In this document: piece by piece, positions 3,185 through 63,153 of the stretch
Position numbering within the stretch: the first letter of the stretch is position 1
How the letters are laid out: every line of letters begins with the position of its first letter
Assembly (NCBI GenBank): GCA_035913415.1
Contig: JAMIIV010000199.1
Coordinates: 6,229-70,228 of the forward strand
Length of the DNA stretch: 64,000 nucleotides
Source of the DNA: Fibrobacteria bacterium
GTDB lineage: Bacteria > Fibrobacterota > Fibrobacteria > UBA5070
Direction: 5' to 3'
Program-made: the position numbers and the translations under genes
Notes under the pieces: model-generated
What the model saw: the letters and a program-made list of their open reading frames with translations, nothing else
Databases searched by the model: none
What the model was told of the DNA's origin: nothing

Positions 3185-5077
3185 ATGCGTATCCCTCGCC
3201 TACTTGCCGCGATGCTCGCGACGGCAAGCATCGCTTCGGCACAGATGGTGGTCAGTCACCAGTCGGCCTCCGCGGCTTCGCCGACCAACCAGATCAAGCC
3301 CTACCTCCAGATCGAGAACAAGGGATCCACCGCGGTCGATCTTTCGAAGATCACGATCGACTACCTGATGTACGAGCAGAACCTCCTGCCCACGGCTCTG
3401 GTCGCCGACTGCTGGTGGACTTCGGTCGGGGCATGCGCCGATCTCATCGCCGAGTTCGCGTCCATCCCGCTGCAGCAGGACGGGACCCGCAAGGCGAACC
3501 TGCGCGCGCGCATCGGCTTCGCCAAGGGATCGCTCGCGGCAGGTCAGAAATTGACCATCGAGTGGGGGCTCCACGAGCAGGGGTACCAGCACGTGTTCGA
3601 CGAGGCCGATGACTGGTCGTTCACGTCGGCCAACGGTCAGTGGAACATCGATTCCCGCGTGGCGATCGGTTCCAGCGGAACGGGCTCGACCGGGACCGGC
3701 ATGGTGTGGAAAGGTCTGGTTCCAGGTCTTCCCGCCGCGGCCACGGCGGGTGACGTGGTGCGCAGCCAGGCGCAAGACGCCTCCTTCGTGTACGACGGCG
3801 CGAGCTGGGTGCTGCTGGCCGAAGCGGGCAAGGTCGGGCCGCAGGGCCCGGCCGGTCCTGCGGGGGCCACGGGTTTGCAAGGGCCGGTCGGTGTGATGGG
3901 TCCGCAAGGTGTGCAGGGACCTGCAGGCACTTCGGGCGGGAGCGTCGATGTCACCGCGTTGCAGGCGCAGCTCGCGGCGATGCAGACGAGTCTCGCCAGC
4001 CAGGCTGCGGCCATATCGGCACTGACCGTTCTTGTCGGGCAGGGAAGCGGAACTCAGGCACCCGCCGGGACGATTGCGGTCGCGGCGGGCGAGGCGCACA
4101 GCCTGTTCCTGAAGAACGATGGGACGGCGTGGGCGACGGGAAACAACGGGTTCGGTCAATTGGGCGACGGAACCACGATCAACCGCATCGAACCGGTGCA
4201 GATTTTGGCAGGGGTGAAGGCGATTGCGGCGGGCAAATCCTACAGCCTGTTCTTGAAGAGCGACGGAACGGTGTGGGCGACGGGATTCAACGAACGCGGC
4301 CAGCTGGGTGACGGAACCCTGGCGAACAAGTCGACTCCGGTGCAGATTTTGACCGGGGTGAAGGCGATGGCGCCCGGTGTTTATCACAGCCTGTTCTTGA
4401 AGACCGACGGGACGGTGTGGGCGACGGGATCCAACGGTCGTGGCCAGTATGGTGACGGAACCACTGTTGGCAAGCAAACCCCGGTGCAGGTTCAGAGCGG
4501 TGTCGAGTCCATTGCTGCCGGCATGTTCTTCAGCCTGTTCCTGAAGACGGACGGAACGGCATGGGCGGCGGGGATGAGCCCTTTCGGCCAGCTGGGAGCC
4601 GGGTCCTCCGAGGACAGGCCGACTGCGGTGCGGATTTTGACCGGCGTGAAGGCGATCTCTGCGGGCTATTCCCACAGTCTGTTCCTGAAGAGCGACGGGA
4701 CGGCGTTGGCGACGGGATGGAACGCCTACGGTCCGTTGGGTGACGGGACCACCGAGAACAAGTTCGCTCCGGTGCAGATCTTGACCGGCGTGAAGGCGAT
4801 CTCTGCGGGCTATTCCCACAGTCTGTTCCTGAAGAGCGACGGGACGGTGTGGGCTACGGGATTGAACTCCTACGGCCTGTTTGGCGATGGGACCGGCGTG
4901 GATGTGTTGACTCCCGTGCAGGTGGGGGGCGGAGTGAAGGCTCTTTCTGCGGGCTATAACCACAGTCTGTTCCTCAAGACCGACGGCTCGCTCCAGGCTG
5001 CGGGGTTGAATTCCGACGGCCAGCTCGGGGACGGAACGGTATCCGGAAAGTCCATTCCAGTCCAGATCAACTACTGA
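3185..5077 (+). CDS. Secreted CBM3 (cellulose-binding) - collagen-like triple-helix repeat - 7x RCC1-repeat protein.
   Basis: Signal peptide MRIPRLLAAMLATASIASAQ. NQIKPYLQIENKGSTAVDLSKITIDYLMYEQ...DCWW matches the CBM3 signature. GPQGPAGPAGATGLQGPVGVMGPQGVQGPAG is a Gly-X-Y collagen repeat. Seven repeats follow of the form HSLFLKxDGTxWATGxNxxGQLGDGT (RCC1/ATS1-type). Confidence 0.7.
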   Translation: MRIPRLLAAMLATASIASAQMVVSHQSASAASPTNQIKPYLQIENKGSTAVDLSKITIDYLMYEQNLLPTALVADCWWTSVGACADLIAEFASIPLQQDGTRKANLRARIGFAKGSLAAGQKLTIEWGLHEQGYQHVFDEADDWSFTSANGQWNIDSRVAIGSSGTGSTGTGMVWKGLVPGLPAAATAGDVVRSQAQDASFVYDGASWVLLAEAGKVGPQGPAGPAGATGLQGPVGVMGPQGVQGPAGTSGGSVDVTALQAQLAAMQTSLASQAAAISALTVLVGQGSGTQAPAGTIAVAAGEAHSLFLKNDGTAWATGNNGFGQLGDGTTINRIEPVQILAGVKAIAAGKSYSLFLKSDGTVWATGFNERGQLGDGTLANKSTPVQILTGVKAMAPGVYHSLFLKTDGTVWATGSNGRGQYGDGTTVGKQTPVQVQSGVESIAAGMFFSLFLKTDGTAWAAGMSPFGQLGAGSSEDRPTAVRILTGVKAISAGYSHSLFLKSDGTALATGWNAYGPLGDGTTENKFAPVQILTGVKAISAGYSHSLFLKSDGTVWATGLNSYGLFGDGTGVDVLTPVQVGGGVKALSAGYNHSLFLKTDGSLQAAGLNSDGQLGDGTVSGKSIPVQINY

Positions 5078-49714: not shown

Positions 49715-52700
49715 CTGTTCCCCGCACACGCGGGGATGAACCGTTGATGAAGAGGTGGTTTCCGTCAAAACGGGACTGTTCCCCGCACACGCGGGGATGA
49801 ACCGGAAGAGAGGGAGGATTGATCTTTAGGCAACCTCTGTTCCCCGCACACGCGGGGATGAACCGACGCCCTGGCGATAGGTGTCAACCTGTTGCCACTG
49901 TTCCCCGCACACGCGGGGATGAACCGGTTCTCTCTCCTGCGTCTGCAACCTCGCAAACCTGTTCCCCGCACACGCGGGGATGAACCGGTCGCGGTCAAGG
50001 GGCGCAACGGGCAGGTCTCCTGTTCCCCGCACACGCGGGGATGAACCGTCAGCGTAAAGCTCGGCAGCCCCCATGGCGGACTGTTCCCCGCACACGCGGG
50101 GATGAACCGCGCGGATTTCGAGGGTCTCGGTCGTGATCTCCCTGTTCCCCGCACACGCGGGGATGAACCGATCCCGCGCCCCGTGCTCGTCGCAGGGTGG
50201 GACTGTTCCCCGCACACGCGGGGATGAACCGCGGCCTCCCACCACGACAGCGGAGGAGCTTGCCTGTTCCCCGCACACGCGGGGATGAACCGATCAAGCG
50301 CGAGGCCATCGAAGAGAAGCTGGCCTGTTCCCCGCACACGCGGGGATGAACCGGATTCGACCTGCCGGAACTCCAGACGATCCAGCTGTTCCCCGCACAC
50401 GCGGGGATGAACCGGTTTCAGAGGATGGCGCTACCGATGGGCGCGGCTGTTCCCCGCACACGCGGGGATGAACCGGACAATCCCTGGTTTCTCAATTCTT
50501 CGATCCGCTGTTCCCCGCACACGCGGGGATGAACCGAACGAGGACAGGAACCGCTTCACGGGCAGGGCCTGTTCCCCGCACACGCGGGGATGAACCGACG
50601 AGTTCTGGAAATGGGTATGCTCATGGGCCCTGTTCCCCGCACACGCGGGGATGAACCGGTGGCGGACATGTTCGTGGGCTCCATCAAGGCCTGTTCCCCG
50701 CACACGCGGGGATGAACCGCTCTCAATGCGTCCGAAGAGGCGACTCTTGCGCTGTTCCCCGCACACGCGGGGATGAACCGCCGATGGCATACGACTCGTC
50801 AAAATCCGTCGCCTGTTCCCCGCACACGCGGGGATGAACCGCCCGCTGGATGGACGCCAACGGCTACGACCTGCTGTTCCCCGCACACGCGGGGATGAAC
50901 CGGGGCTACCTGCCGGGATCGAGTACTACGGTCGCTGTTCCCCGCACACGCGGGGATGAACCGGTGACCCAGCATAAGCCCCGGATGGCCGGCTCCTGTT
51001 CCCCGCACACGCGGGGATGAACCGAGGAGGGGCTCGACGATGCGATGTTCCCCGCCCTGTTCCCCGCACACGCGGGGATGAACCGGCGGCCTACGATTTC
51101 TCCGGCCAGGTCAAGGACTGTTCCCCGCACACGCGGGGATGAACCGAGTGACCAATTGTGTCACACCTGACGTTTGCACTGTTCCCCGCACACGCGGGGA
51201 TGAACCGTGTTACATCGACCAGGTGCTCTGACTGACTAGCTGTTCCCCGCACACGCGGGGATGAACCGGTCGGCCGATATACGGTACCCTTTCCGGGAGC
51301 CTGTTCCCCGCACACGCGGGGATGAACCGGTCATTTCGCGCCCTTAGCAGGAATGTGGCGACTGTTCCCCGCACACGCGGGGATGAACCGCATGAGCAAC
51401 CACGAAATGCCCCCGCAGGCCACTGTTCCCCGCACACGCGGGGATGAACCGGTCACCACGTCGAAAGAATGGTTCTCCATGCGCTGTTCCCCGCACACGC
51501 GGGGATGAACCGCCTGATCCCGTACCTGCAGAAAGCGGCGGACCCTGTTCCCCGCACACGCGGGGATGAACCGTCCCAGGACCCCGTCCTGGACCTCGTG
51601 TCCTGCTGTTCCCCGCACACGCGGGGATGAACCGACGCGGAGGTTATCACCGAGACGCAGGACGCCCTGTTCCCCGCACACGCGGGGATGAACCGAAGCA
51701 GCGCGATACCGTGGCCACCACGCGCCCCTGTTCCCCGCACACGCGGGGATGAACCGCTCGGGCGGTCGGTGGTGAGCCCGATGGCGGACTGTTCCCCGCA
51801 CACGCGGGGATGAACCGGCCAGCATAGCGTTGTTCGGAGTGTCACCAAACTGTTCCCCGCACACGCGGGGATGAACCGTCTCCGGTGATGGGGTCCGGGA
51901 ATACCGGGTTCTGTTCCCCGCACACGCGGGGATGAACCGCTGTCCCATGGCCTCGCGGATTCCGTCATCGCCTGTTCCCCGCACACGCGGGGATGAACCG
52001 GCGTAGGCGGACTGGATCGCGGCGTCCTTGGCCTGTTCCCCGCACACGCGGGGATGAACCGGTTGCCGAGGCCGGAGCCACCGATGGGCGCGGCTGTTCC
52101 CCGCACACGCGGGGATGAACCGAGGTTAAATGGATCATTGAGCACTGTTCCCCGCACACGCGGGGATGAACCGGCATGCCGTCCGTCGGAGACACCAGGG
52201 CGAAGCTGTTCCCCGCACACGCGGGGATGAACCGGTCGAACGGGAAACCAGGAATCACCCAATCGACTGTTCCCCGCACACGCGGGGATGAACCGGGGTG
52301 CTCACTCTTTGGGACGGGTGGTCCCTGCTGTTCCCCGCACACGCGGGGATGAACCGAGGGCGAGAGAGCATCTGCCGCTCTCGCCATCCTGTTCCCCGCA
52401 CACGCGGGGATGAACCGCTCGACCGGAGGGTAAACTTCCGAAGGAAGTGCTGTTCCCCGCACACGCGGGGATGAACCGATCAATTTCGAAAAGGTCTACC
52501 TGGACTGGGCCTGTTCCCCGCACACGCGGGGATGAACCGGCGAACGCCCCCGGCGGATGTTCGGCCGAGTACTGTTCCCCGCACACGCGGGGATGAACCG
52601 CGGAGGAAACCCACGGCCTTTCCCGCGAGGTCCTGTTCCCCGCACACGCGGGGATGAACCGGCTCGAGCCCTGCGCGTGCGCGACGACCTGCCCTGTTCC

Positions 52701-53210
52701 CCGCACACGCGGGGATGAACCGTGACCCTACCAGAGCCACCAAGGATAGTAGGGCTGTTCCCCGCACACGCGGGGATGAACCGAACAGGACCGTCACGCC
52801 GAGAATCACGGCGAACTGTTCCCCGCACACGCGGGGATGAACCGGGCCACCTCGGCGGGAGTCCCCACCATTGCAACTGTTCCCCGCACACGCGGGGATG
52901 AACCGAAGTAGCCAATCATGACGGAAACCATCCTTGACTGTTCCCCGCACACGCGGGGATGAACCGGAGGTCACCCCGGCCACGGATCTGGGCTACCTCT
53001 GTTCCCCGCACACGCGGGGATGAACCGTTCGGGAGGCGTGCGCGCTGGTCACGCAGGGACTGTTCCCCGCACACGCGGGGATGAGGAGCGACGTACTCAG
53101 TCCAAGTGATCGATGCAGGCCTGTTCCCCGCACACGCGGGGATGAACCGTTCTTCCCCAACGTTGCAGTCCGGAAGGTCGCCTGTTCCCCGCACACGCGG
53201 GGATCAACCG
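49715..53210 (+). CRISPR. Type I-E CRISPR array. 29-bp repeat CTGTTCCCCGCACACGCGGGGATGAACCG, about 58 repeats, mostly 32-bp spacers. Leader (about 80 bp, AT-richer) next to cas2; distal repeats degenerate.
   Basis: Read directly from the sequence: 61-bp period from 49715; one short (22-bp) spacer near 52122; degenerate repeats at about 53060 (..GATGAGGAGCG) and 53182 (..GGATCAACCG). Minus-strand ORFs across the array (SSPRVRGT.. peptides) are artefacts. Confidence 0.97.
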
Positions 53211-53249
53211 GTCACGGTGGAACGGCAATGGTACATGCGGCAATTTCGA

Positions 53250-53282
53250 GGTGATTCTCCAACAAGTTGTTGGAGAATCACC
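53250..53282. repeat. Perfect 16-bp-arm palindrome GGTGATTCTCCAACAA-G-TTGTTGGAGAATCACC, 40 bp downstream of the last repeat.
   Basis: Read directly from the sequence; no U-tract follows. Confidence 0.6.
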
Positions 53283-53883
53283 GTGAGGCAGGATTGTCGC
53301 CGGACACCCAAAGTGATTCGCCTCGGATGTTGATAAAGAAGCCTGTGGGCTGGTGGTAGCCACCCCATGCGAAGCCGCCTACGAATGGATAGGCAGGAGC
53401 AGTTGCGATCGATGCTGTCGACTGGATGGTCGGTTCGTTGGATCCGCGAAGCGCCCCCAATTCACTCCATGACGATACCCAGTTCCGGCGCGGCCGGCCC
53501 TGGCGCCGCAAAGTGATATGAATGCGTCCGCCGACGAATCCACGTCGGCGGACGCCACCTCCCTCCATGGTTTGCCGCGCGGTCCATCTCGCCCCGGTAG
53601 AAAGTGATCCAAATGTGCTCGCCTGGCCATCGTCGGATCCGCTGCGTCCCCGCACGCACAGCGAGCACCTCAATGAGACGGGGGGTATTGCCGCGTGGAG
53701 CGATCACAAGGAGAATTGGTCCCAATGGATATATCCCCGGGAGGCAAATCGAACCTCGGCGGTTGCCCCACCCCCGATTCGCATCCATGCCGGCCAGCAG
53801 TGGGCTCCGCCCCGACCTATCTTGCTCCCAGGCGACGGGCGGGCGGAAATCGACCGTGCCCTGTCGCATCCAGGAAGCGGATC

Positions 53884-54540: not shown

Positions 54541-54762
54541 ACCGCGAGCGCGGGGGCAGAAGGCAAAACGAGTCACGTCGATCGCCTCGACGAACCGAGC
54601 CTTCCGGTTCATGCCTCCATGTCACCCTGCACGTGGGGGGGGGAGATGGGGATCCTTCGCGCTGCGAACGAATGGGGAGGGATGGCCGCCCTCGCACCGC
54701 CACGAGGGATGGGAGCGAAGCTACTCTTCCTTTCCTTCCAAGTCGCCCAGTTCCCCACCACG

Positions 54763-55917
54763 ATGGAATTCCCCATGAATTTCCCCCTGCCCCGATGCTC
54801 CCTCTTGGCGCTGCTCGCGGGCTTGGTTTCCGTTCCCACCGATTCTGCCGACATCCAGTTGTCCGGGACGGTCACGGATCTGTCGGGGAGCGTCCTCCCC
54901 GGTGCCGGTGTCGTTCTGGTCGGGGCCGGCAATGCCACGAGCGCCGGCGCGATCGGACGCTGGAGCATCTCCGGAAAGCCGACAGGTATTGTCGCCCAGA
55001 CAAGGACGCCCGCGAGGAAGGTCGCGAGTCACCTCGAGTTGGTGGGAAGCCATCTGCGATTGCGCATGGACGGCGCGGACGCGCTGGGCCGGAAATCCCA
55101 GGGGTTGGTCGGGATGGAGAATGCCGCACCCAACCCCGGAGAAACGGTCGGAGCGCTCCGTGCGGCGGTGCCCGAGGTGCTGGATACCCTGTTGTACTCC
55201 TGGAAAGGAATCGTGCGTGCGCGAGTGGGAATCACATCGCTTGTTGCGGGCGACCTGGGAACGCAAGCGATAGACACTTCGACGGGCTCGTTCAGTCCGG
55301 GTTCCCTGAGTTATGAGGGACAGATCTACAGGACGGTGATGGTCGGGAGTCAGACCTGGATGGCGCAGAACCTGAACTTCAAACCCGCCGGCGCCGATTC
55401 GGGGTGGTGTCCCGGAGCGGAGGGGCAAAAGACGCCGGGAGAGGCCGCGAGTTGTGCCGAATTCGGTCGATTGTACACCTGGGCCACCCTGATGAAACTA
55501 TCCGACACATGCAATTTCAAGGTTTGCGCGAGTCAAGTCCAGGCAAGGCACCAGGGAATCTGTCCAAAGGGTTGGCGCGTGCCGAGTGACGCCGATTGGG
55601 CGATGCTCGTGGCCTTCGTGGAGCGGGATGTACGCGTGGGGAGCGACAACGGAGGGCTCGCGTTGAAATCCACGACAGGATGGATCGATGGCGGCGAAAA
55701 CGGTCTGGATTTCCACGACTTTGGCGGACTGCCAGCGGGCTACCGAGACTCGGACAGCTCATTCTCGAGTGCCGACAGTTACACCCGGTGGTGGAGCGCC
55801 ACCGAGGCCGGCGGCGGCTATGCGTGGCTTCGAGGCTTGAGGTTCTACAGTCCCTATGTCGAGACCGACTTCGTCTATAAAACAGGGGCGCTCTCGGCCC
55901 GTTGCCTGAAGGACTGA
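54763..55917 (+). CDS. Lipoprotein with N-terminal CarboxypepD_reg-like domain and C-terminal FISUMP domain (Fibrobacter succinogenes major paralogous domain, TIGR02145).
   Basis: MEFPMNFPLPRCSLLALLAGLVSV signal. DIQLSGTVTDLSGSVLPGAGVVLVGAGNATSAGAIGRWSISG is a CarboxypepD_reg-like sandwich. The FISUMP hallmarks GQIYRTVMVGSQTWMAQNLNF...GRLYTWA...CPKGWRVPSDADWAML...GYR are present. Confidence 0.7.
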   Translation: MEFPMNFPLPRCSLLALLAGLVSVPTDSADIQLSGTVTDLSGSVLPGAGVVLVGAGNATSAGAIGRWSISGKPTGIVAQTRTPARKVASHLELVGSHLRLRMDGADALGRKSQGLVGMENAAPNPGETVGALRAAVPEVLDTLLYSWKGIVRARVGITSLVAGDLGTQAIDTSTGSFSPGSLSYEGQIYRTVMVGSQTWMAQNLNFKPAGADSGWCPGAEGQKTPGEAASCAEFGRLYTWATLMKLSDTCNFKVCASQVQARHQGICPKGWRVPSDADWAMLVAFVERDVRVGSDNGGLALKSTTGWIDGGENGLDFHDFGGLPAGYRDSDSSFSSADSYTRWWSATEAGGGYAWLRGLRFYSPYVETDFVYKTGALSARCLKD

Positions 55918-56234
55918 GTGCGGCGACCTCCGGCCAGATGGGGGGCGTTTGTGCGATCCGGCAGAATCTCGAGGTGTCGCGGCGCTGCGCGTGCCTGCTT
56001 TGGGCATCGCGAATCCATCCGGCTCCTCCATTGGGGAGGGAATCACGACCCTCGATTCTTCGGAGTTGCGCGACTCGACCACCGGGATAGTCACCACGGC
56101 AATCCTACTGGCTCAACCCATCCTCGACGAATGTGCCAGGAAGGCCCGCCATGCCTGCAGTTCTCTGGGTAGATTGTCGAGCATATCCTCCACTTTCCCA
56201 GGGGTCTCCATTGTTCCACCGGAATCGAATCGCG

Positions 56235-56528
56235 ATGGTCCGCCAGGTCGAATCCTTCGTCCTGGCTCTGTTCGGCCTGCTGTGGGCCACCAACCTCGGT
56301 GGTTGCATGGCGGAGCCCGCGGCCAAATACGGGTGCCCCCCGACCGCCTGCAGTCCCGACGACACCATCGTCGTGAAATATGGCGCGCCCGAGCCTGTGG
56401 ATACCATCCTGGCCAAGTACGGAGCCCCCACGCCTCCCGATTCGATGATCGCGCGCTACGGGATCCCCATGCCGGTGGACACCATCACCGTCAGGTACGG
56501 CGTTCCCGGGACGGGCCCCTCCACTTGA
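56235..56528 (+). CDS. Small lipoprotein with 5 tandem [KR]-Y-G-x-P-x-(P/T)-x-D-(T/S)-(I/M)-x-(A/V) repeats; candidate substrate or precursor of the downstream radical SAM enzyme.
   Basis: MVRQVESFVLALFGLLWATNLGGC lipobox, then AKYGCPPTACSPDDTIVV / KYGAPEPVDTILA / KYGAPTPPDSMIA / RYGIPMPVDTITV / RYGVPGTGPST. The stop TGA overlaps the TTG start candidate of the next gene (TTGA). Confidence 0.5.
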   Translation: MVRQVESFVLALFGLLWATNLGGCMAEPAAKYGCPPTACSPDDTIVVKYGAPEPVDTILAKYGAPTPPDSMIARYGIPMPVDTITVRYGVPGTGPST

Positions 56529-57643
56529 GTTCGGGCGTGCTCGAGCCCTCGCTCGCGCAGAAGCTCGGGCTGGAAGTGTACCGGGCCCATCGCGCGCTCC
56601 AGACGCGTTCGCACCAGTTGCGCTACTTCTTCTGGGAATGCACCCTGCGGTGCAATCTTTCGTGCAGCCATTGCGGGAGCGAGTGCATCACGACAAGCCA
56701 GGTCCCCGACATGCCGCGGGAGGAGTTCCTGGCGGTCCTTGACAAGATCCGTCCCCACATCGATCCCGCGCGCACCCTGATCGTCGTGACGGGAGGCGAG
56801 CCCCTGGTGCGCACGGACCTCGAAGCCTGCGGCGCTGCCTTCCGCGACCGCGGCTTCCCCTGGGGGATGGTCACCAACGGCTGGGCCATGACCGAAGAGC
56901 GCTGGAAGGGACTGGTGGATTCCGGCCTGCGCTCCCTCACCGTGAGTCTCGACGGGCTTGAAGCGACGCACGACGCCTTTCGCCGCCGCAAGGGATCGTG
57001 GAGGCGCGCCGTGCAGGCGCTCTCGTACGCTGCCGCCACCACCGGGCTCACCTTCGACGCCATGACCACCACCACGCCGGCGAGTCTCCCCGAACTGTCC
57101 CGCATCCGTGACATGCTGGTCGAGATGGGCGTCAAAAACTGGCGCCTGGACATGGTCTTCCCCAAGGGACGGGCCGCCTCCGACCCCTCGTTGTTCCTCT
57201 CCGACGCGCAGTACCTGGAAATGCTGGAGTTCATCCGGGTCACGCGCGAGAGCGCCTCCATCCATGTGCAGTGCGGTTGCGACGGATATTTCGGCAAGCT
57301 CGAAGGCCAGGTGCGCGACACCCCGTTCTTCTGCCGGGCCGGCATCAACATCGGATCGGTGTTGTGCGACGGCTCCATCTCGGCGTGTCCCAGCCTGCGC
57401 GCCGATTACATCCAGGGCAACATTCGCACCGATGATTTCCTGGAGGTCTGGAACAACCGGTTCGGCGTGATGCGGGATCGCACCTGGGCCAAAACCGGGG
57501 TTTGCGCCGATTGCGGCGACTGGAAGTACTGCCACGGCAACGGACTCCATTTGCGCGACGAGACGACGGGCGAACTCGCCTTCTGCCACAAGAAGCGTGT
57601 CGAGGCCGCGATGACCTCGGAGGGATGCCCCTCCGGAAGCTGA
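56524..57643 (+). CDS. Radical SAM enzyme with C-terminal SPASM domain (anSME/peptide-maturase type).
   Basis: CNLSCSHCGSE (CxxxCxxC) and GGEPL. C-terminal SPASM cysteines (CGCDGYFG...FFCRAGINIGSVLCDGSISACPSL...CADCGDWKYCHGNGLHL). The start is TTG (about 56524) or GTG (about 56536). Confidence 0.8.
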
Positions 57644-57879
57644 ATTCCGGCCCTCCGCCAGCCGCGCCCCGCCGGTGGTGCGGGTCGCGCCGTTGCAACC
57701 GTTCCAACGGTGATTGGCGGGATCCACACGCCGGGCGCGGTTCCCGGCCCTATCCTGGATGACGTGCCTCCATTGCGGAATCGACCGGCTGCTCCCGCGT
57801 GTCTGTCCGCCCGCGGTGGAGGCTGCTCGCATCCTGCCGGGGGGGAGGAAGACTGGAGCGAGGGGAGGTCGCTTTGCGC

Positions 57880-59178
57880 ATGGCATCACCGAGACCCGGC
57901 CTGGATGGGATGGCGCAGGAGCAGGATGTTGCGGGCGCCGTCCGTGGAAAATGGCTTGCCGTCGCCGAGGAGATGCGGCGGCGCATCGAATCGGGGCGGT
58001 GGAAAAGCGGGTCCCGACTCCCTTCGGTGGGCGAACTCTGCAACGAACTCGCGGTCACGCATCCGACCCTCCGCAAGGCGATGGAACGGTTGGTCGCAGC
58101 CGGGTTGGTGGAGCCGCTGGCGAGGGGATGGCGGGTGGTGTCGCGGGGACGTGCGTCTTCGGGAATGGCGATCGGTCTGCTGCGCCGATGCCTGGACGAC
58201 GGTGTCCCGCTCGTCGAGGCGGATCGGGAAGCCTTCTTCCGGCGGGCCCTGGAGCTCGATGCCTCGCGTCGAGGATTGCGGGTGGAATCGTGGGGAATCG
58301 ACCAAGCCGGCAATCTCTTTCGGGGGCGGCAGCCGTGGACCGGCAGCCTCGGAAAAGCCGTTTCGGGCCTGGTGGTCTCGCTGTGGCACATGCCGGAGCC
58401 GTCCCGGGATCTGTCTTCGCTGCACGGCCTCTCCCTTCCCATGGCCGTATGGGACGAACGCTCCAACGAGGAGGCCCGGCCGGAATTTCCCCGGGTACGA
58501 TGGTTCCGTTCGGGGCTTTCGCAAAAGGCGGGGCTGATCGTCGGGAGGCATCTGATCGAGCAACGACATCGCGGCATCGCCTGGATCAGTCCGTTCCAGG
58601 GAAGCATCTGGTCGAGCCATCGCCAGGCGGGGTTGGCCCAGGCCTGCGCGCAGGCCGTCCCTTCGGTGGTCTTGCATTCCTTCGTGCGGGATGATCGCTG
58701 GGATCCGGTGCAGTACACGCCGGATCCGGAGGTGGCGAGGTTGCTGATGGAACCACTGGTGGCGGCGATCCCTGGTGCGTTGCGTCCCAGTCTGGATGCC
58801 GTGGTCGAGTCGGGTCAGGCCCTGTTGCGCGACCGCGAACTGCTGGGGGCTCTCGATGGACTCTTCGTGAAGGCCCTTCGAAGGCCCGGCCTCACGGCTT
58901 GGGTGTGCGCCAACGACGACATCGCCAGGATCGCATGGAACTGGCTGGACGGTCGCGGAATCGTGGTCGGGCGCGACCTGGCGCTTGTGGGATTCGACAA
59001 CACCCTATCGGCCCAGTGTGCGGGTCTCACCAGCATGAGCTTCCTCGAGGACGATCTCGCCTCGGGCATGGTGTCCTACCTGCTCGATCCTGGGCATTGG
59101 TGCTCCAACGGCGTGGTCTCGCTGATCGGTTCGCTGGTCGTGCGAGGCTCCACCTGGACTCCGCGCCCGGTCGGGTGA
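57880..59178 (+). CDS. GntR-family HTH regulator fused to a periplasmic-binding-protein-like (LacI-type sugar-binding) effector domain.
   Basis: KSGSRLPSVGELCNELAVTHPTLRKAMERLVAAGLVE is a GntR wHTH. A C-terminal PBP type-1 fold follows (VGFDNTLSAQCAGLTSMSF...). The start is MASPRPG or MAQEQD. Confidence 0.65.
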   Translation: MASPRPGLDGMAQEQDVAGAVRGKWLAVAEEMRRRIESGRWKSGSRLPSVGELCNELAVTHPTLRKAMERLVAAGLVEPLARGWRVVSRGRASSGMAIGLLRRCLDDGVPLVEADREAFFRRALELDASRRGLRVESWGIDQAGNLFRGRQPWTGSLGKAVSGLVVSLWHMPEPSRDLSSLHGLSLPMAVWDERSNEEARPEFPRVRWFRSGLSQKAGLIVGRHLIEQRHRGIAWISPFQGSIWSSHRQAGLAQACAQAVPSVVLHSFVRDDRWDPVQYTPDPEVARLLMEPLVAAIPGALRPSLDAVVESGQALLRDRELLGALDGLFVKALRRPGLTAWVCANDDIARIAWNWLDGRGIVVGRDLALVGFDNTLSAQCAGLTSMSFLEDDLASGMVSYLLDPGHWCSNGVVSLIGSLVVRGSTWTPRPVG

Positions 59179-59303: not shown

Positions 59304-60905
59304 TCAGAATCCGACAGGAACTCGGAGCGGGGCGGATCCGGGAATTTCCAGGATGGCGAATCCGGGATGGTCGGGGAGGGTGAAGCGCACTTGGCCCGAG
59401 TGAACCGGGCTCGAGGCGAGCAAGATTCCCGAGGGAGAGCGCAAGCGGGCCACACCTGGCCTAAGGCCCGACACGACCAACGTGCCGTTTGTGGTCATCC
59501 AGGTCGGTGCTGCCGGATTCCGGGGTGCGACGGCCAGAGGGATTCCTCTCACCGAGATGGCATCGATGTTGAACAGTCCGATTCCCGATCCGCTGAACTC
59601 CAGGCGCAGGGCGTGGGTGCCTGGGGTGATCGGGAAACGGATGCCCGCCTGGGTGGACCAATTGTCCCAACCCGAGGTTCCGCCGATGGACGACTTGCCG
59701 ATTTCCTTCTCGTCCAGGACCCAGCGGATGTCGCCTCCGGAATTCTGGCTGGCGGCGCTCACCTCGGCATCGAGGACAAGATCGGATGTGGCGCGAACCA
59801 TCCACGTCGCCGACGTCTTGTCGTCGATGAACGCAAGGTGCAGTCCCGATCCGTTCGCGTCGGGCTCCGTGCGCGCGCCGACCGTGCGGAAGGGTTTGCC
59901 TCCGTCGATGGTGCCGGGGAGAGGGAACGTGTCGACCTTGACCACGATGTCGTCGTACCATGCGTTGCGTTTGCGAAGCTCGTCCCGCAGCAGCGTGCCC
60001 GAGGCGCTCAGGTTGCCCGCAGCCCAAGCGCCCGAACTGGAGGCGCCTCCGTTGAGAGCCGAACAGGTCTCGGCCTTGTCGGCGATCGACCAGTTCGCCC
60101 ACGAGATGCCGCGCTGGTCCATCCACGCGAGCCAGTCGGCGGTTTCGGAGTAGCCGAGCCGACCGTCGCCGGTGGACTCGCAGGTTCCCCACTCGGTGGC
60201 GAACAGCGCGATGCCGTCGCGCATGGCGGCGTCGGCGCGGTCCCGGAGCCATTGTCCATGCGAGGCCGCGTAGAAGTGCAGCGTGTAGGCGATGTTGGTG
60301 CCGGGCACGGGATCTGCGGCGGGTTTGTCGACGGCCGACGACCAGTCGGGATTGCCCACGATGATCAGGTTGTCCGGGTCGACCTCGCGGATGGCGCGGG
60401 AGACGGCGGTGGCGTAGTCCTTGATGCGCCACCATTCCTGCTTGACGGGCTCGTTGTAGATCTCCCATATGACGTTGGGGTGGGAGCCGTAGTCGCGGGC
60501 CATGCGCTGGAAGAAGTCGACGGCCTGGGCCTGGTGGTCGACGGCATTGTGGTCGTGCCAATCGACGATCACGTAGATTCCCCGGGCGATGGCCGCGTCG
60601 ACCACCTTGCGGACCCGGGCTTCCTGCACGGCGCCCGTCTCGAGGTAGCCGCCCTCCTCGACCGCCATCGCGGCGCGTACCACCGAGACCTTCCAGTCGT
60701 CGGCCAGCCAGTCGATCACTTTCGCATTCCAGTACTTGCTGATCCACTGGCTCCAGAACAGGCTCATGCCCGACAGTTTGGCGGGTTCGCCGTTCTTGTT
60801 CACGACCTTGCTGCCCTGGACGGACAGTGAACCGTGGATGTCCACGGGGGTCGCCGCACTTGCGGCCGCAACCATCGTCGCCATTGCGATCCAGATCTTC
60901 TTCAT
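59304..60905 (-). CDS. GH5 glycoside hydrolase (endoglucanase-like) with CBM6/35-like beta-sandwich and T9SS-CTD-like tail.
   Basis: Signal MKKIWIAMATMVAAASA. GH5 catalytic motifs IWEIYNEP (acid/base) and FATEWGT (nucleophile). C-terminal ...LRSPSGILLASSPVHSGQVRFTLPDHPGFAILEIPGS. Confidence 0.8.
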   Translation of the reverse strand: MKKIWIAMATMVAAASAATPVDIHGSLSVQGSKVVNKNGEPAKLSGMSLFWSQWISKYWNAKVIDWLADDWKVSVVRAAMAVEEGGYLETGAVQEARVRKVVDAAIARGIYVIVDWHDHNAVDHQAQAVDFFQRMARDYGSHPNVIWEIYNEPVKQEWWRIKDYATAVSRAIREVDPDNLIIVGNPDWSSAVDKPAADPVPGTNIAYTLHFYAASHGQWLRDRADAAMRDGIALFATEWGTCESTGDGRLGYSETADWLAWMDQRGISWANWSIADKAETCSALNGGASSSGAWAAGNLSASGTLLRDELRKRNAWYDDIVVKVDTFPLPGTIDGGKPFRTVGARTEPDANGSGLHLAFIDDKTSATWMVRATSDLVLDAEVSAASQNSGGDIRWVLDEKEIGKSSIGGTSGWDNWSTQAGIRFPITPGTHALRLEFSGSGIGLFNIDAISVRGIPLAVAPRNPAAPTWMTTNGTLVVSGLRPGVARLRSPSGILLASSPVHSGQVRFTLPDHPGFAILEIPGSAPLRVPVGF

Positions 60906-61188
60906 CGGTGAGTCCTCCAGCAGTGGGTGCCTTCGCGGGAACCAACGCAGTGGGTTCCCTCGTGCAGAGTTTGTCGCCGAACGAACGCTGGAAGCGGATC
61001 GATTTGGAGCAAACGAGAAAGGCTCCGGCGAGGGTGGACGAGGCGGTTGGTACGGGAATGTGAAAACGAGAAAGGACGCCGCTGAGGCTTGTGGAACCGC
61101 CGTCGCGACGCGCACTTCGTCGATAGGTTCCCTCTTCGCTCCCGCGTCGTACGGACGACGGTGGGCATCGGACGAAAGGGGATTCGAG

Positions 61189-63153
61189 ATGGGCAGGACC
61201 GCAGTGATGCTGATGCTGGGACTGGGGCTCGTGGCCGGGCGGAAAGCCGACGCGGCCGGGTTCCTGCGGGCCCAGGGGAAGTTCATCGGAAACGACACGG
61301 GGCTGGTCCAGTTGCGGGGACTGGGGCTGGGCGGCTGGATGCTCCAGGAAGGCTACATGTTCGGTACCGCCGACTTCGCGGGGACCCAGCACGAGATCCG
61401 GGCGAAGATCGAGTCGGTGGTGGGCCTCGAGAAGACCGATGCGTTCTACCGCGCCTGGCGCAAGAACTTCGTCACGCGCCGGGACATCGACTCGCTGGCC
61501 TCGTGGGGCTTCAATGCGATCCGGCTTCCCATGCACTGGAACCTCTACATGGAGCCGGGAATGCCCGTGCGCTGGAAGGACGAGGGGTTCCAGATGACCG
61601 ACTCGCTCCTGGCCTGGTGCAAGGCCAACCGGATCTGGGTGATCCTCGACCTGCACGCCGCCCCGGGTGGGCAGGGGCACGATCGGAACATCAGCGACGG
61701 CAACCCCGCGGTGCCCTCGTTGTGGGACGACGCCGACAAACGCGCCATGGTCGTGGCGCTGTGGCGGAAACTGGCGGAGCGCTACGCGGGCGAGGAGTGG
61801 ATCGGTGGATACGACCTGCTCAACGAAACCAACTGGGGATTCGAGGGCAAGGCCGAGAACGGGTGCGATGATGTGGTCAATGCGCCCCTGCGCCAATTGC
61901 ACCTGGACATGACGAAGGCCATCCGCGAAGTGGATCGCAACCACCTCCTGTTCGTGGAAGGCAACTGCTGGGGCAACAACCATGCGGGCATGATGCCGCC
62001 GTGGGATTCCAATCTCGCGATCAGTTTTCACAAGTACTGGAACGGCACCGATGCGGGGACGGTGAATCCCTTGTTCCAGATCCGTGACACCTGGAACATT
62101 CCCCTCTGGTGCGGAGAATCGGGCGAGAACGGCAACGAGTGGTTCCGACAGACGATCCGGATGTTCGAAGCGGAGAAGATCGGGTGGTCATGGTGGCCGT
62201 TCAAGAAGATCGAAAGCGTGGTGGGGCCCTTGTCGGTTTCCACCACGGCCGGATGGGATGCGTTTGTTGCCTGGGGCAAAGGCGGACCCAAACCCGATCC
62301 GGACATTTTCGAGAAGGGGCTGATGGAGCTCGCGGACAATCTCCGACTCGAAAAGTGCCGCCGTCAGCCCGACGTGATCGACGCCATGTTCCGGCAGGTG
62401 CGCACTGACACGACCCGGCCCTGGCGGGAGATTCGCGTGCCGGGACAATGGGGCGCCGAGGAATACGATCTGGGTGCCGAAGGCAAGGCGTACCACGACG
62501 CCGCCTCGCTGAACGCCGGAGGAGTGGGCAGCACGAACTGGAACGAAGGGTGGTCGTTCCGCAACGACGGTGTCGACCTGCAGTGGTCGAAGGAGGAGGG
62601 TTCGTGGAACGTGGGTTGGACCGCCTCGGGTGAATGGATCCAATACACGGTCGACGTCGATTCCGCGGCTCGCTACCTGCTCTTGGCGCGCACCTCGGGT
62701 CCGGGCGGACGACTGGATCTCCAGTTGGACGGCAAGCCTCTGGTCGCCTTCCAGACGTCGCCGACCGTGGGCTGGTCGACCTGGTCCGATTCGCGCTCGC
62801 CGGACTTCGCCCTGCCGGCGGGGCGCCACGTCCTGCGGCTGGGATTCCCGGATGGCGGCTTCAATCTGGGGCGCATCGGAATGCCCTTGGCCACACAGGC
62901 GTGCCTGCTCTCCGGCGCCTGTCCCACCTCGATCGGTTCCCGGGATCGGGAACGGCTGGTCGCATGGACGCGCGAAGGTCTGGTCTATTCCGGATCGGGT
63001 TCCTCGGAGATCCTGGTCGTCGAGCCCGCGGGGCGCACCCTGTTTCGAGGACAGATTCCGTCAGGAGCTGTGGTGCCCGGGACGCGATCCTCGCGATCCA
63101 GGATTCTGTTCGTGTCGATCGACGGCCAGACGCGGAGCCTGGTCCGGCCTTGA
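61189..63153 (+). CDS. GH5 glycoside hydrolase (cellulase/mannanase-like) with CBM6/35-like domain and T9SS-CTD-like tail.
   Basis: MGRTAVMLMLGLGLVAGRKADA signal. LLNETNWG (acid/base) and WCGESGENGN (nucleophile). CBM-like SWNVGWTASGEWIQYTVDVDSAARYLLLARTSG. C-terminal EILVVEPAGRTLFRGQIPSGAVVPG...ILFVSIDGQTRSLVRP. Confidence 0.8.
   Translation: MGRTAVMLMLGLGLVAGRKADAAGFLRAQGKFIGNDTGLVQLRGLGLGGWMLQEGYMFGTADFAGTQHEIRAKIESVVGLEKTDAFYRAWRKNFVTRRDIDSLASWGFNAIRLPMHWNLYMEPGMPVRWKDEGFQMTDSLLAWCKANRIWVILDLHAAPGGQGHDRNISDGNPAVPSLWDDADKRAMVVALWRKLAERYAGEEWIGGYDLLNETNWGFEGKAENGCDDVVNAPLRQLHLDMTKAIREVDRNHLLFVEGNCWGNNHAGMMPPWDSNLAISFHKYWNGTDAGTVNPLFQIRDTWNIPLWCGESGENGNEWFRQTIRMFEAEKIGWSWWPFKKIESVVGPLSVSTTAGWDAFVAWGKGGPKPDPDIFEKGLMELADNLRLEKCRRQPDVIDAMFRQVRTDTTRPWREIRVPGQWGAEEYDLGAEGKAYHDAASLNAGGVGSTNWNEGWSFRNDGVDLQWSKEEGSWNVGWTASGEWIQYTVDVDSAARYLLLARTSGPGGRLDLQLDGKPLVAFQTSPTVGWSTWSDSRSPDFALPAGRHVLRLGFPDGGFNLGRIGMPLATQACLLSGACPTSIGSRDRERLVAWTREGLVYSGSGSSEILVVEPAGRTLFRGQIPSGAVVPGTRSSRSRILFVSIDGQTRSLVRP

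Follow-up and report, generated by a model that had tools for sequence, protein, structure and literature searches.

The subject of this work is a pair of overlapping genes in a 64,000-nucleotide stretch of DNA from a Fibrobacteria bacterium (contig JAMIIV010000199.1, positions 6,229 to 70,228), referred to below as the window. At 56235-57643 of the window, a gene for a small lipoprotein with five [KR]-Y-G-x-P motifs runs directly into a gene for a radical S-adenosylmethionine (SAM) enzyme that carries a SPASM domain. An earlier prediction, made from the letters of the window, had proposed that the two genes form an undescribed peptide- or protein-modification system. The features of the pair, all on the plus strand, are as follows (aa, amino acids; ORF, open reading frame; AF2, AlphaFold2).

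56211-56213: alternative TTG start of the small gene, giving 105 aa (MFHRNRIAMVRQ...); Met1 of the 105-aa homolog P0004 aligns there
56235-56528: putative substrate gene, a small lipoprotein of 97 aa with its ATG at 56235 (ORF translation)
56235-56306: signal peptide and lipobox, aa 1-24 (...WATNLGG-C24), read from the sequence
56325-56339: motif 1, KYGCP, aa 31-35 (translation, as for the next four)
56376-56390: motif 2, KYGAP, aa 48-52
56415-56429: motif 3, KYGAP, aa 61-65
56454-56468: motif 4, RYGIP, aa 74-78
56493-56507: motif 5, RYGVP, aa 87-91
56525-56528: TTGA overlap of the stop TGA (56526-56528) with the start TTG (56525-56527), seen in the sequence; translational coupling
56525-57643: radical SAM/SPASM enzyme, 372 aa, TIGR04133 family (NCBIfam, Pfam, AF2)
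56651-56674: CX3CX2C radical SAM cluster motif, C43/C47/C50, flanked by the family-conserved C39 and C54 (invariant or near-invariant columns in a 37-sequence alignment)
57278-57586: SPASM auxiliary-cluster region with seven conserved cysteines, C252, C270, C288, C327, C330, C336 and C354 (invariant columns in the same alignment)

The two genes and their products

The small gene encodes a 97-aa protein with the sequence MVRQVESFVLALFGLLWATNLGGC-MAEPAAKYGCPPTACSPDDTIVVKYGAPEPVDTILAKYGAPTPPDSMIARYGIPMPVDTITVRYGVPGTGPST, which begins with a hydrophobic, signal-peptide-like helix and has the lipobox L-G-G-C at Cys24. The original prediction had the coordinates and the reading frames right. Translation may start at TTG 56211 instead of ATG 56235, 24 nt further upstream, which would add two arginines to the n-region of the signal peptide. 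All five motifs are present, while the five consecutive 13-residue repeats proposed for them reduce to four: the distances from Tyr to Tyr are 17, 13, 13 and 13 residues, so that the period holds in four of the five units and the first is off. In a six-frame translation of the 64 kb window (127,996 codons), [KR]YG.P occurs exactly five times, always in the small ORF, and YG.P occurs seven times in total. The five-motif pattern is real and highly non-random. Tandem Repeats Finder detects no DNA-level repeat in 56100-56700, which indicates that the periodicity is kept up in the protein sequence.

That the small ORF is a true gene follows from six close homologs, which retain frame, lipobox and motifs with a repeat number that ranges from 5 to 7. 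The protein matches no Pfam or NCBIfam family, even at E 10. In its AF2 model the N-terminal helix alone is ordered, and the remainder has a predicted local distance difference test score (pLDDT) of about 40; a repeat region predicted to be disordered is as expected of a substrate. A promoter and terminator scan of 55800-58000 gave no promoter-like site, although this phylum may use other promoter types, and a single terminator-like match that is intragenic and at chance level.

The second gene matches the NCBIfam family TIGR04133 ('rSAM_w_lipo') with 506.1 bits against a cutoff of 425, aa 11-360 aligning to positions 2-350 of the 350-position profile. The next NCBIfam family, TIGR04103, reaches 144 bits against a cutoff of 725. 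The assignment as a radical SAM/SPASM enzyme stands, given the CX3CX2C motif and Pfam matches to Radical_SAM (PF04055, 63.5 bits) and SPASM (PF13186, 32.3 bits, aa 270-330). The fourth cysteine of the usual CX2CX5CX3C SPASM motif is replaced by glycine in this enzyme, and one auxiliary cluster may consequently have three Cys ligands, with its fourth position free or occupied by something other than Cys.

The AF2 model of the enzyme has a pLDDT of 89 and a predicted TM-score of 0.89. In Foldseek and PDB sequence searches, the nearest solved folds are maturases for peptides that are made on the ribosome and modified after translation (RiPPs), namely SkfB, SuiB, PqqE, ChlB and EpeE/YydG; BlsE, DesII and MoaA are also near. 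All of these structure matches share 14-22% identity with the enzyme, and on this predicted model the likeness to solved maturases is at superfamily level only. The radical SAM core begins after about 35 residues with a single helix (aa 10-29), which means that there is no RiPP recognition element (RRE) domain. The enzyme has neither a signal peptide nor a transmembrane segment and is thus cytoplasmic. Its family is large, with more than 5,400 homolog clusters at 90% identity (E<=1e-20), and is abundant in rumen and gut Bacteroidales, Fibrobacterota and spirochaetes.

The Tyr-Gly partner across related loci

Homologs of the enzyme appear in public sources as 'TIGR04133 family radical SAM/SPASM protein' or, at JGI, as 'radical SAM enzyme (rSAM/lipoprotein system)'. 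Their canonical partners belong to TIGR04134, 'radical SAM-associated putative lipoprotein' ('lipo_with_rSAM', cutoff 39.8 bits), which is matched with 90.7 bits at locus L007 and 52.6 bits at L050. Such partners are found beside Bacteroidales, gammaproteobacterial and other homologs of the enzyme. They are 120-190 aa long, and a short linker with x-Y-G-x-P joins their lipoprotein signal peptide to a CarboxypepD_reg-like beta-sandwich. The TIGR04133 and TIGR04134 models are both 'hypothetical equivalogs'.

The window pair resembles this system in that its enzyme matches the family at full length above the curated cutoff and adjoins a lipobox protein, and in that its partner, too, has a signal peptide followed by Y-G-x-P (C24, then KYGCP at aa 31-35). 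It differs in that the partner gives no match to TIGR04134 at E 10, whether as a 97-aa or a 131-aa translation. The window partner has no beta-sandwich or other globular domain, the motif stands five times in a disordered, proline-rich chain, and the genes overlap by 4 bp. Fibrobacterota partners, which consist of repeats and have no globular domain, miss the TIGR04134 model for that reason. Judged by these family matches, the two ORFs are the Fibrobacterota form of a database-defined, experimentally uncharacterised radical SAM/lipoprotein system (TIGR04133 plus TIGR04134). The proposal of an undescribed class holds in part: the pairing is already catalogued, while the chemistry and the repeat-only, multi-site form of the partner are undescribed.

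The stop/start overlap noted in the original prediction is confirmed, and it recurs in relatives. In other Fibrobacterota genomes, a small lipobox protein lies directly upstream of the enzyme with an NTGA overlap (GTGA at L001, ATGA at L002 and L003), and the same arrangement with 4-bp overlaps is found in the gene calls at L071, L073 and L075. In the window, an alternative in-frame GTG start of the radical SAM ORF lies at 56537. The pair is all that the window has in common with L001-L004, and it is a conserved, translationally coupled two-gene cassette.

The survey of enzyme loci used one genome per species and gave 70 loci, 66 of them evaluable, with both strands around the enzyme gene inspected. 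At about 58 of the 66, the enzyme is adjacent to a signal-peptide protein with a YG no more than about 25 residues past the hydrophobic region. These loci span Fibrobacterota, Bacteroidales, Spirochaetota and Myxococcota, Gemmatimonadota, metagenome-assembled genomes (MAGs) of Proteobacteria, and a Micrarchaeota MAG. The partner may lie upstream on the same strand, downstream (L005, L010, L017, L061) or in divergent orientation, the last in a second Bacteroidales paralog clade (L021-L037). When the neighbouring ORFs were clustered all against all, the YG lipoprotein emerged as the only gene family kept beside the enzyme across phyla. More distant enzymes, which score 286-394 bits on TIGR04133 and so fall below its cutoff, still keep a YG partner, and the association therefore reaches beyond the curated family.

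Alignment of the first motif of the 58 partners shows that Tyr and Gly are invariant and that Pro follows at +3 in 41/58 (a single off-register row in this count was a hand-entered offset error). The original prediction had taken an invariant basic residue before the Tyr as part of the core, and this does not hold: the residues most often found at -1 are Cys (17), Glu (15), Met (8), Lys (6) and Leu (4). Lys or Arg before the Tyr is specific to repeat-type partners, and canonical TIGR04134 partners have Glu, Met or Cys there. All that the partners in TIGR04133-type loci universally share is a signal for secretion and a Tyr-Gly that does not vary and that x-Pro usually follows.

The rest of the partner is variable. 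Short partners with a single YG exist (L006, L045, L048, L054, L058), and partners with several YG units arose independently in separate branches of the enzyme tree (L011, L061, L065 and the Fibrobacterota clade of the window and L001-L004), which means that the globular domain is dispensable. The multi-YG partner of L011 sits inside a Bacteroidales clade that otherwise has domain-type partners; that of L061, from Anaeromyxobacteraceae, has five LYG units; and that of L065, from the Micrarchaeota MAG, has four YG units and a C-terminal transmembrane anchor in place of the lipobox. Where a genome encodes two paralogs of the enzyme, each is accompanied by its own type of partner (L007 and L022, both in one MAG; L012 and L024), and some enzymes have two partner genes (L005, L009, L017, L039).

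Two clades show further features. In the divergent Bacteroidales clade (L021-L037, L055, L064), 19 loci have a further gene, of about 215 aa, after that of the lipoprotein (L022 2869-3516 on the minus strand is one example). Its product is a signal-peptide protein that resembles a beta-barrel and could be a clade-specific third component. In the Gemmatimonadota/Krumholzibacteriia-type clade (L038, L041, L043, L067, L056), most partners have at least two YG sites: in L038, L041 and L067 the second is close to the C-terminus (VEYGP[QP]), in L043 both are N-terminal, and L056 retains the C-terminal one only.

A repeat-profile search, exhaustive over 1.84 billion representatives, defined the repeat-only lipoprotein type as about 20 Fibrobacterota-type cluster representatives with 2-8 YG units each. 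Their repeat consensus is D-[TS]-h-h-[AV]-[KR]-Y-G-x-P-x-P-x, and the 13-residue spacing is exact in 55 of 84 spacings. At -1, the 105 sites have Lys (63), Arg (24), Leu (9), Trp (7) and Glu (2). At +2, Gly is found in several proteins with KYGGP repeats (L003, P0127, P0133, P0134, P0136). The signal peptides of this clade are also conserved, with the consensus lR...s.l.R.lE..vfaLFallWttsl.gGC over the roughly 20 clusters; the acidic Glu (17/18) and the invariant Trp are both unusual for a signal peptide. In the divergent-partner Bacteroidales clade, the signal peptide and the segment before the YG average 78% identity and the mature domain 53%. The corresponding values for the other Bacteroidales clade tested, 45% and 49%, are about equal. 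Unusual conservation of the signal peptide would fit recognition by an enzyme that has no RRE, and the signal peptide may serve as the recognition (leader) element.

The same profile retrieved proteins of unrelated architecture, and a radical SAM/SPASM gene is adjacent in all five cases with enough context; two further KYG-repeat lipoproteins (P0175, P0185) stand outside this count because their contigs are too short. In P0143 and P0173, an I42-like N-terminal domain is combined with about 12 KYGYPCGxQD-type repeats, and each is followed by a radical SAM/SPASM gene of 475-482 aa with tetratricopeptide repeats (TPR). P0161 combines Pfam Inhibitor_I42 with CxLKYGxP repeats and lies between a radical SAM gene and a 494-aa radical SAM/SPASM+TPR gene. 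P0159 (KYGIPEDP repeats) is divergent from a 342-aa radical SAM/SPASM gene, and P0154 (VKYGPPTPIP repeats) is preceded by one of 375 aa. Three other KYGxP-repeat families likewise show no variation at Tyr and Gly; Pro stands at +3 in 52/70, 24/26 and 18/21 of their sites, and Lys precedes the Tyr in 50/70, 16/26 and 18/21. All three TPR-bearing enzymes are distant homologs of the enzyme in the window. For the two that were aligned with it pairwise, identity is 28-31% across some 330 residues (E 8e-47 and 3e-38), and family motifs, HCGSxC among them, are held in common. TIGR04133 is among the top four NCBIfam matches of the enzymes next to P0143, P0161, P0173 and P0154, all below every cutoff.

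The I42-repeat systems are thus like the window pair in having a phi-phi-K-Y-G-x-P repeat, often with a 13-aa period, beside a related SPASM enzyme. They differ in that the putative substrate has an N-terminal I42-like domain and no signal peptide or lipobox, and in that the enzyme has a C-terminal TPR region. Since a signal peptide is absent from the I42-type proteins, export is no general requirement, and the YG repeat is.

Several loci retrieved in this search deserve separate mention. What appears to be a second, unnamed system is found at L076 2171-4473, L078 2094-6326 and L084 135-2576, where cytoplasmic I42-like proteins with 9-14 KYGYPCGxQD or CxLKYGxP repeats lie beside a 475-494-aa radical SAM/SPASM enzyme with a TPR tail; L078 has a second radical SAM gene upstream. 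At L083 1502-5791, a 375-aa radical SAM/SPASM gene and an ATP-grasp (RimK-like) gene flank that of a 269-aa protein whose repeats are VKYGPPTPIP and ARYAVPEP, with a giant protein containing a C39-peptidase domain nearby; this may be a hybrid RiPP-like cluster. Matches of the repeat profile in large eukaryote-like proteins (P0128, P0137 and others) were set aside as low-complexity convergence. Among them, P0137 is arthropod cuticle-like with about 20 EYGAP/EYGVP repeats, taken as convergence and not homology.

Proposed modification of the Tyr-Gly unit and rival explanations

The enzyme probably modifies the Tyr-Gly unit of the lipoprotein before export. In this model, which is built on sequence comparison, the cytoplasmic SPASM enzyme would bind the newly made pre-lipoprotein, possibly through the conserved signal peptide, a route proposed because the enzyme has no RRE domain. 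Cleavage of SAM would yield the 5'-deoxyadenosyl radical, which would abstract a hydrogen within each x-Y-G-x-P unit, and the auxiliary Fe-S clusters would complete an oxidative modification centred on the Tyr-Gly dipeptide. The modified precursor would then be exported by the Sec pathway, lipidated at Cys24 and cleaved, giving a proline-rich, disordered, membrane-tethered peptide of about 73 residues with up to five modified sites. The Fibrobacterota clade would have lost the globular domain of the canonical partner and multiplied the target motif.

Since Tyr and Gly alone are invariant, +2 is variable and -1 depends on the clade, chemistry on the Tyr and/or the Gly is favoured over a crosslink to a neighbouring side chain. 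The reaction could be crosslinking, desaturation, hydroxylation, epimerisation or another. Two other targets were considered and rejected. Thioether chemistry of the sacti- or ranthipeptide kind does not suit a general reaction, as four of the five window repeats have no Cys. Modification of the lipid anchor does not suit an enzyme that is soluble and cytoplasmic, with the repeats lying far from Cys24.

Several points weigh against modification of the Tyr-Gly unit. Gene adjacency alone does not prove an enzyme-substrate relation, and the locus scan used peptide patterns taken from the query and was not an unbiased census. At 8 of the 66 loci (L014, L040, L049, L052, L053, L060, L062, L063), no adjacent partner was found within about 4 kb. 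At L060, the lipoprotein at 3739-3951, homologous to the short partners found at L048 and L054, has KDG for KYG, so that the Tyr is lost. Pro at +3 and Lys at -1 are preferred and not fixed, which leaves no clear recognition rule. The enzyme has no RRE, and neighbour clustering and synteny across the loci gave no PqqD-like gene, leader peptidase or transporter conserved near the pair; with no conserved protease or exporter, this is not a classical RiPP cluster. A literature search found, within the library covered, no experimental paper on the function of TIGR04133 or TIGR04134, and the one mention of TIGR04134 appears to be a mis-citation for the type-B C-terminal domain of the type IX secretion system. 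As a separate observation, the MAG that contains L060 holds another copy of the enzyme with an intact partner (L050).

It is unlikely that the lipoprotein is not the substrate at all and instead serves as a carrier, receptor or anchor for an enzyme that acts on a small molecule, a cofactor or another protein. Such a role would suit the tetrapyrrole enzymes NirJ2 and AhbD among the second-tier family matches, the nucleoside decarboxylase BlsE as the best PDB sequence match, the missing RRE and the eight loci with no adjacent partner. However, these matches are far below their cutoffs (127 vs 500 bits) and reflect generic SPASM similarity, and no other conserved gene could supply a small-molecule pathway. 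Conservation in the partner centres on a brief motif within a disordered stretch. This motif has been multiplied in tandem in no fewer than four lineages and recurs in proteins of unrelated architecture beside related enzymes, a pattern that marks a modification site and not a binding domain. Crosslinks from Lys or Arg to an aromatic residue are known products of SPASM enzymes. A C-C bond between the Lys or Arg side chain and the adjacent Tyr ring of each [KR]-Y unit, in the style of ryptide, streptide or darobactin, would be in keeping with the mostly basic -1 residue of the Fibrobacterota repeats and with the Lys that dominates this position in the three other KYGxP families beside radical SAM/SPASM genes. 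The Cys, Glu and Met that prevail at -1 in the first motif of the 58 partners argue against it, as do the Leu, Trp and Glu tolerated there within the Fibrobacterota repeats. Of the maturases that make such bonds (StrB, RrrB, WgkB, DarE), WgkB is the sole family among the top 25 matches, at 63.7 bits against a cutoff of 650. To our knowledge, moreover, the known Lys/Arg-aromatic crosslinks span intervening residues and do not join adjacent ones. Such a link is possible in the repeat-type families with a Lys-dominated -1 position, and as the general reaction it is quite unlikely.

The small protein could also be a multi-core precursor that is cut after each Lys or Arg to release five diffusible, modified peptides of about 13 residues. 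Fungal dikaritin precursors are processed by Kex2 in this way, and the regular 13-aa period, the basic residue directly before each Tyr, the repeat number of 2 to 8 among the relatives counted, and the M66 peptidase gene directly downstream of the pair in L071 all have a place in such a scheme. We regard it as very unlikely, because no protease or transporter is conserved with the pair, a trypsin-like protease would not cleave at the sites with Leu or Trp at -1, and the canonical partners, with one site on a folded domain and a lipid anchor, argue for protein modification. The original prediction had itself offered an anaerobic sulfatase-maturating enzyme (anSME) acting on a distant sulfatase, with the 4-bp coupling incidental, and the chance of this is close to nil. 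The shared SPASM architecture and the absent RRE, and nothing else, speak for it. The proposed comparison with anSME and peptide-maturase subfamilies puts the enzyme in TIGR04133 at 506 bits, with no anSME family in the top 25 NCBIfam matches. No anSME chain is found in the PDB sequence matches, even with a family profile at E<=1, or in the top 50 Foldseek matches. The C/S-x-P/A-x-R motif is absent from the small protein, and enzymes of this family remain paired with YG proteins in many phyla. As a matter of orthology, the anSME identity is refuted. Of the modification system first proposed, a conserved coupled pair stands, with the small protein as the most plausible SPASM substrate, and the novelty of the pairing does not.

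Surroundings of the pair and comparison with known systems

The genes around the pair point to a Fibrobacterota fibre degrader; the window has 64% GC, and the closest homologs of its enzyme are in Fibrobacterota MAGs. Upstream, 54619-55917 encodes a FISUMP-domain protein (TIGR02145, 126 bits), which was considered as a member of the cassette and rejected, as it is conserved with the pair in the closest relatives only. Downstream of the pair, the following regulator is encoded.

57799-59178: GntR + Peripla_BP_3 regulator (Pfam)

Two large ORFs follow at 59304-63153, and from their translations they are putative glycoside hydrolases. At L071, the closest relative, the order is FISUMP, aldo-keto reductase, lipoprotein, radical SAM enzyme, M66 peptidase, GH18 glycoside hydrolase and GntR/PBP regulator, while at L075 every neighbour of the pair differs from the window. 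The original prediction had suggested that the GntR-PBP gene may control the pair. It is absent from L001-L004 and L075, and in L071 the M66 peptidase and GH18 genes intervene, so that it is no part of the cassette; it more plausibly belongs with the glycoside hydrolase genes. Farther upstream, at 52033-53211, lies an array of clustered regularly interspaced short palindromic repeats (CRISPR) in which the 29-nt repeat CTGTTCCCCGCACACGCGGGGATGAACCG recurs 20 times or more with a 61-nt period. The array may reach further upstream, its repeat resembles type I-E, and the short ORFs at 52900-53400 (FIPACAGN, HPRVCGEQ) are translations of it.

What the comparison adds is the hypothesis that YG is the target, together with a sister set of YG-repeat/SPASM systems. 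The repeat-only partner and its relatives reduce the question of the substrate to a defined site, an invariant Tyr-Gly in a disordered segment, and a substrate with five such sites per molecule suits mass spectrometry. If the enzyme modifies Tyr-Gly, this would be a new reaction or substrate class for radical SAM protein modification, and the cell-envelope lipoproteins of major gut anaerobes would bear a modification not seen before. More tentatively, TIGR04133-like enzymes and the TPR-bearing sister group could together represent a widespread, uncharacterised modification of x-Tyr-Gly-x-Pro on exported lipoproteins and I42 repeat proteins, with a chemistry that matches no characterised radical SAM reaction. 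The repeat lipoproteins of Fibrobacterota would then be surface-tethered polymers of a modified unit, for which a crosslink, dehydro- or hydroxy-tyrosine, or a chromophore- or adhesive-like group are candidate products.

Among known systems, the logic proposed for the window pair resembles that of anSME with its sulfatases and of QhpD with QhpC, in which an RRE-less cytoplasmic SPASM enzyme modifies a short motif of a protein that is later exported. The same order of modification before export would apply here. The window pair differs from both in having no orthology with them and in its target, which would be Y-G-x-P instead of the C/S-x-P-x-R of anSME or the Cys-to-Asp/Glu thioethers of QhpD.

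The second comparison is with multi-site radical SAM RiPPs such as the triceptides, streptide, ryptide, tryglysin and darobactin. These are alike in that an aromatic motif is repeated in a disordered precursor beside a SPASM enzyme, and the nearest solved folds of the window enzyme are RiPP maturases (SkfB, SuiB, PqqE, ChlB). They differ in that WgkB scores 64 bits vs 650 and no 3-CyFE family is among the top matches, and in that the window pair has no RRE, protease or exporter and its 'leader' is a lipoprotein signal peptide. Y-G-x formally fits the aromatic-X-X motif of the triceptides. The residue at +2 is variable, however, and in several repeats, such as KYGGP, it is Gly, which has no C-beta, arguing against a cyclophane between Tyr and the C-beta of X3 as the general reaction.

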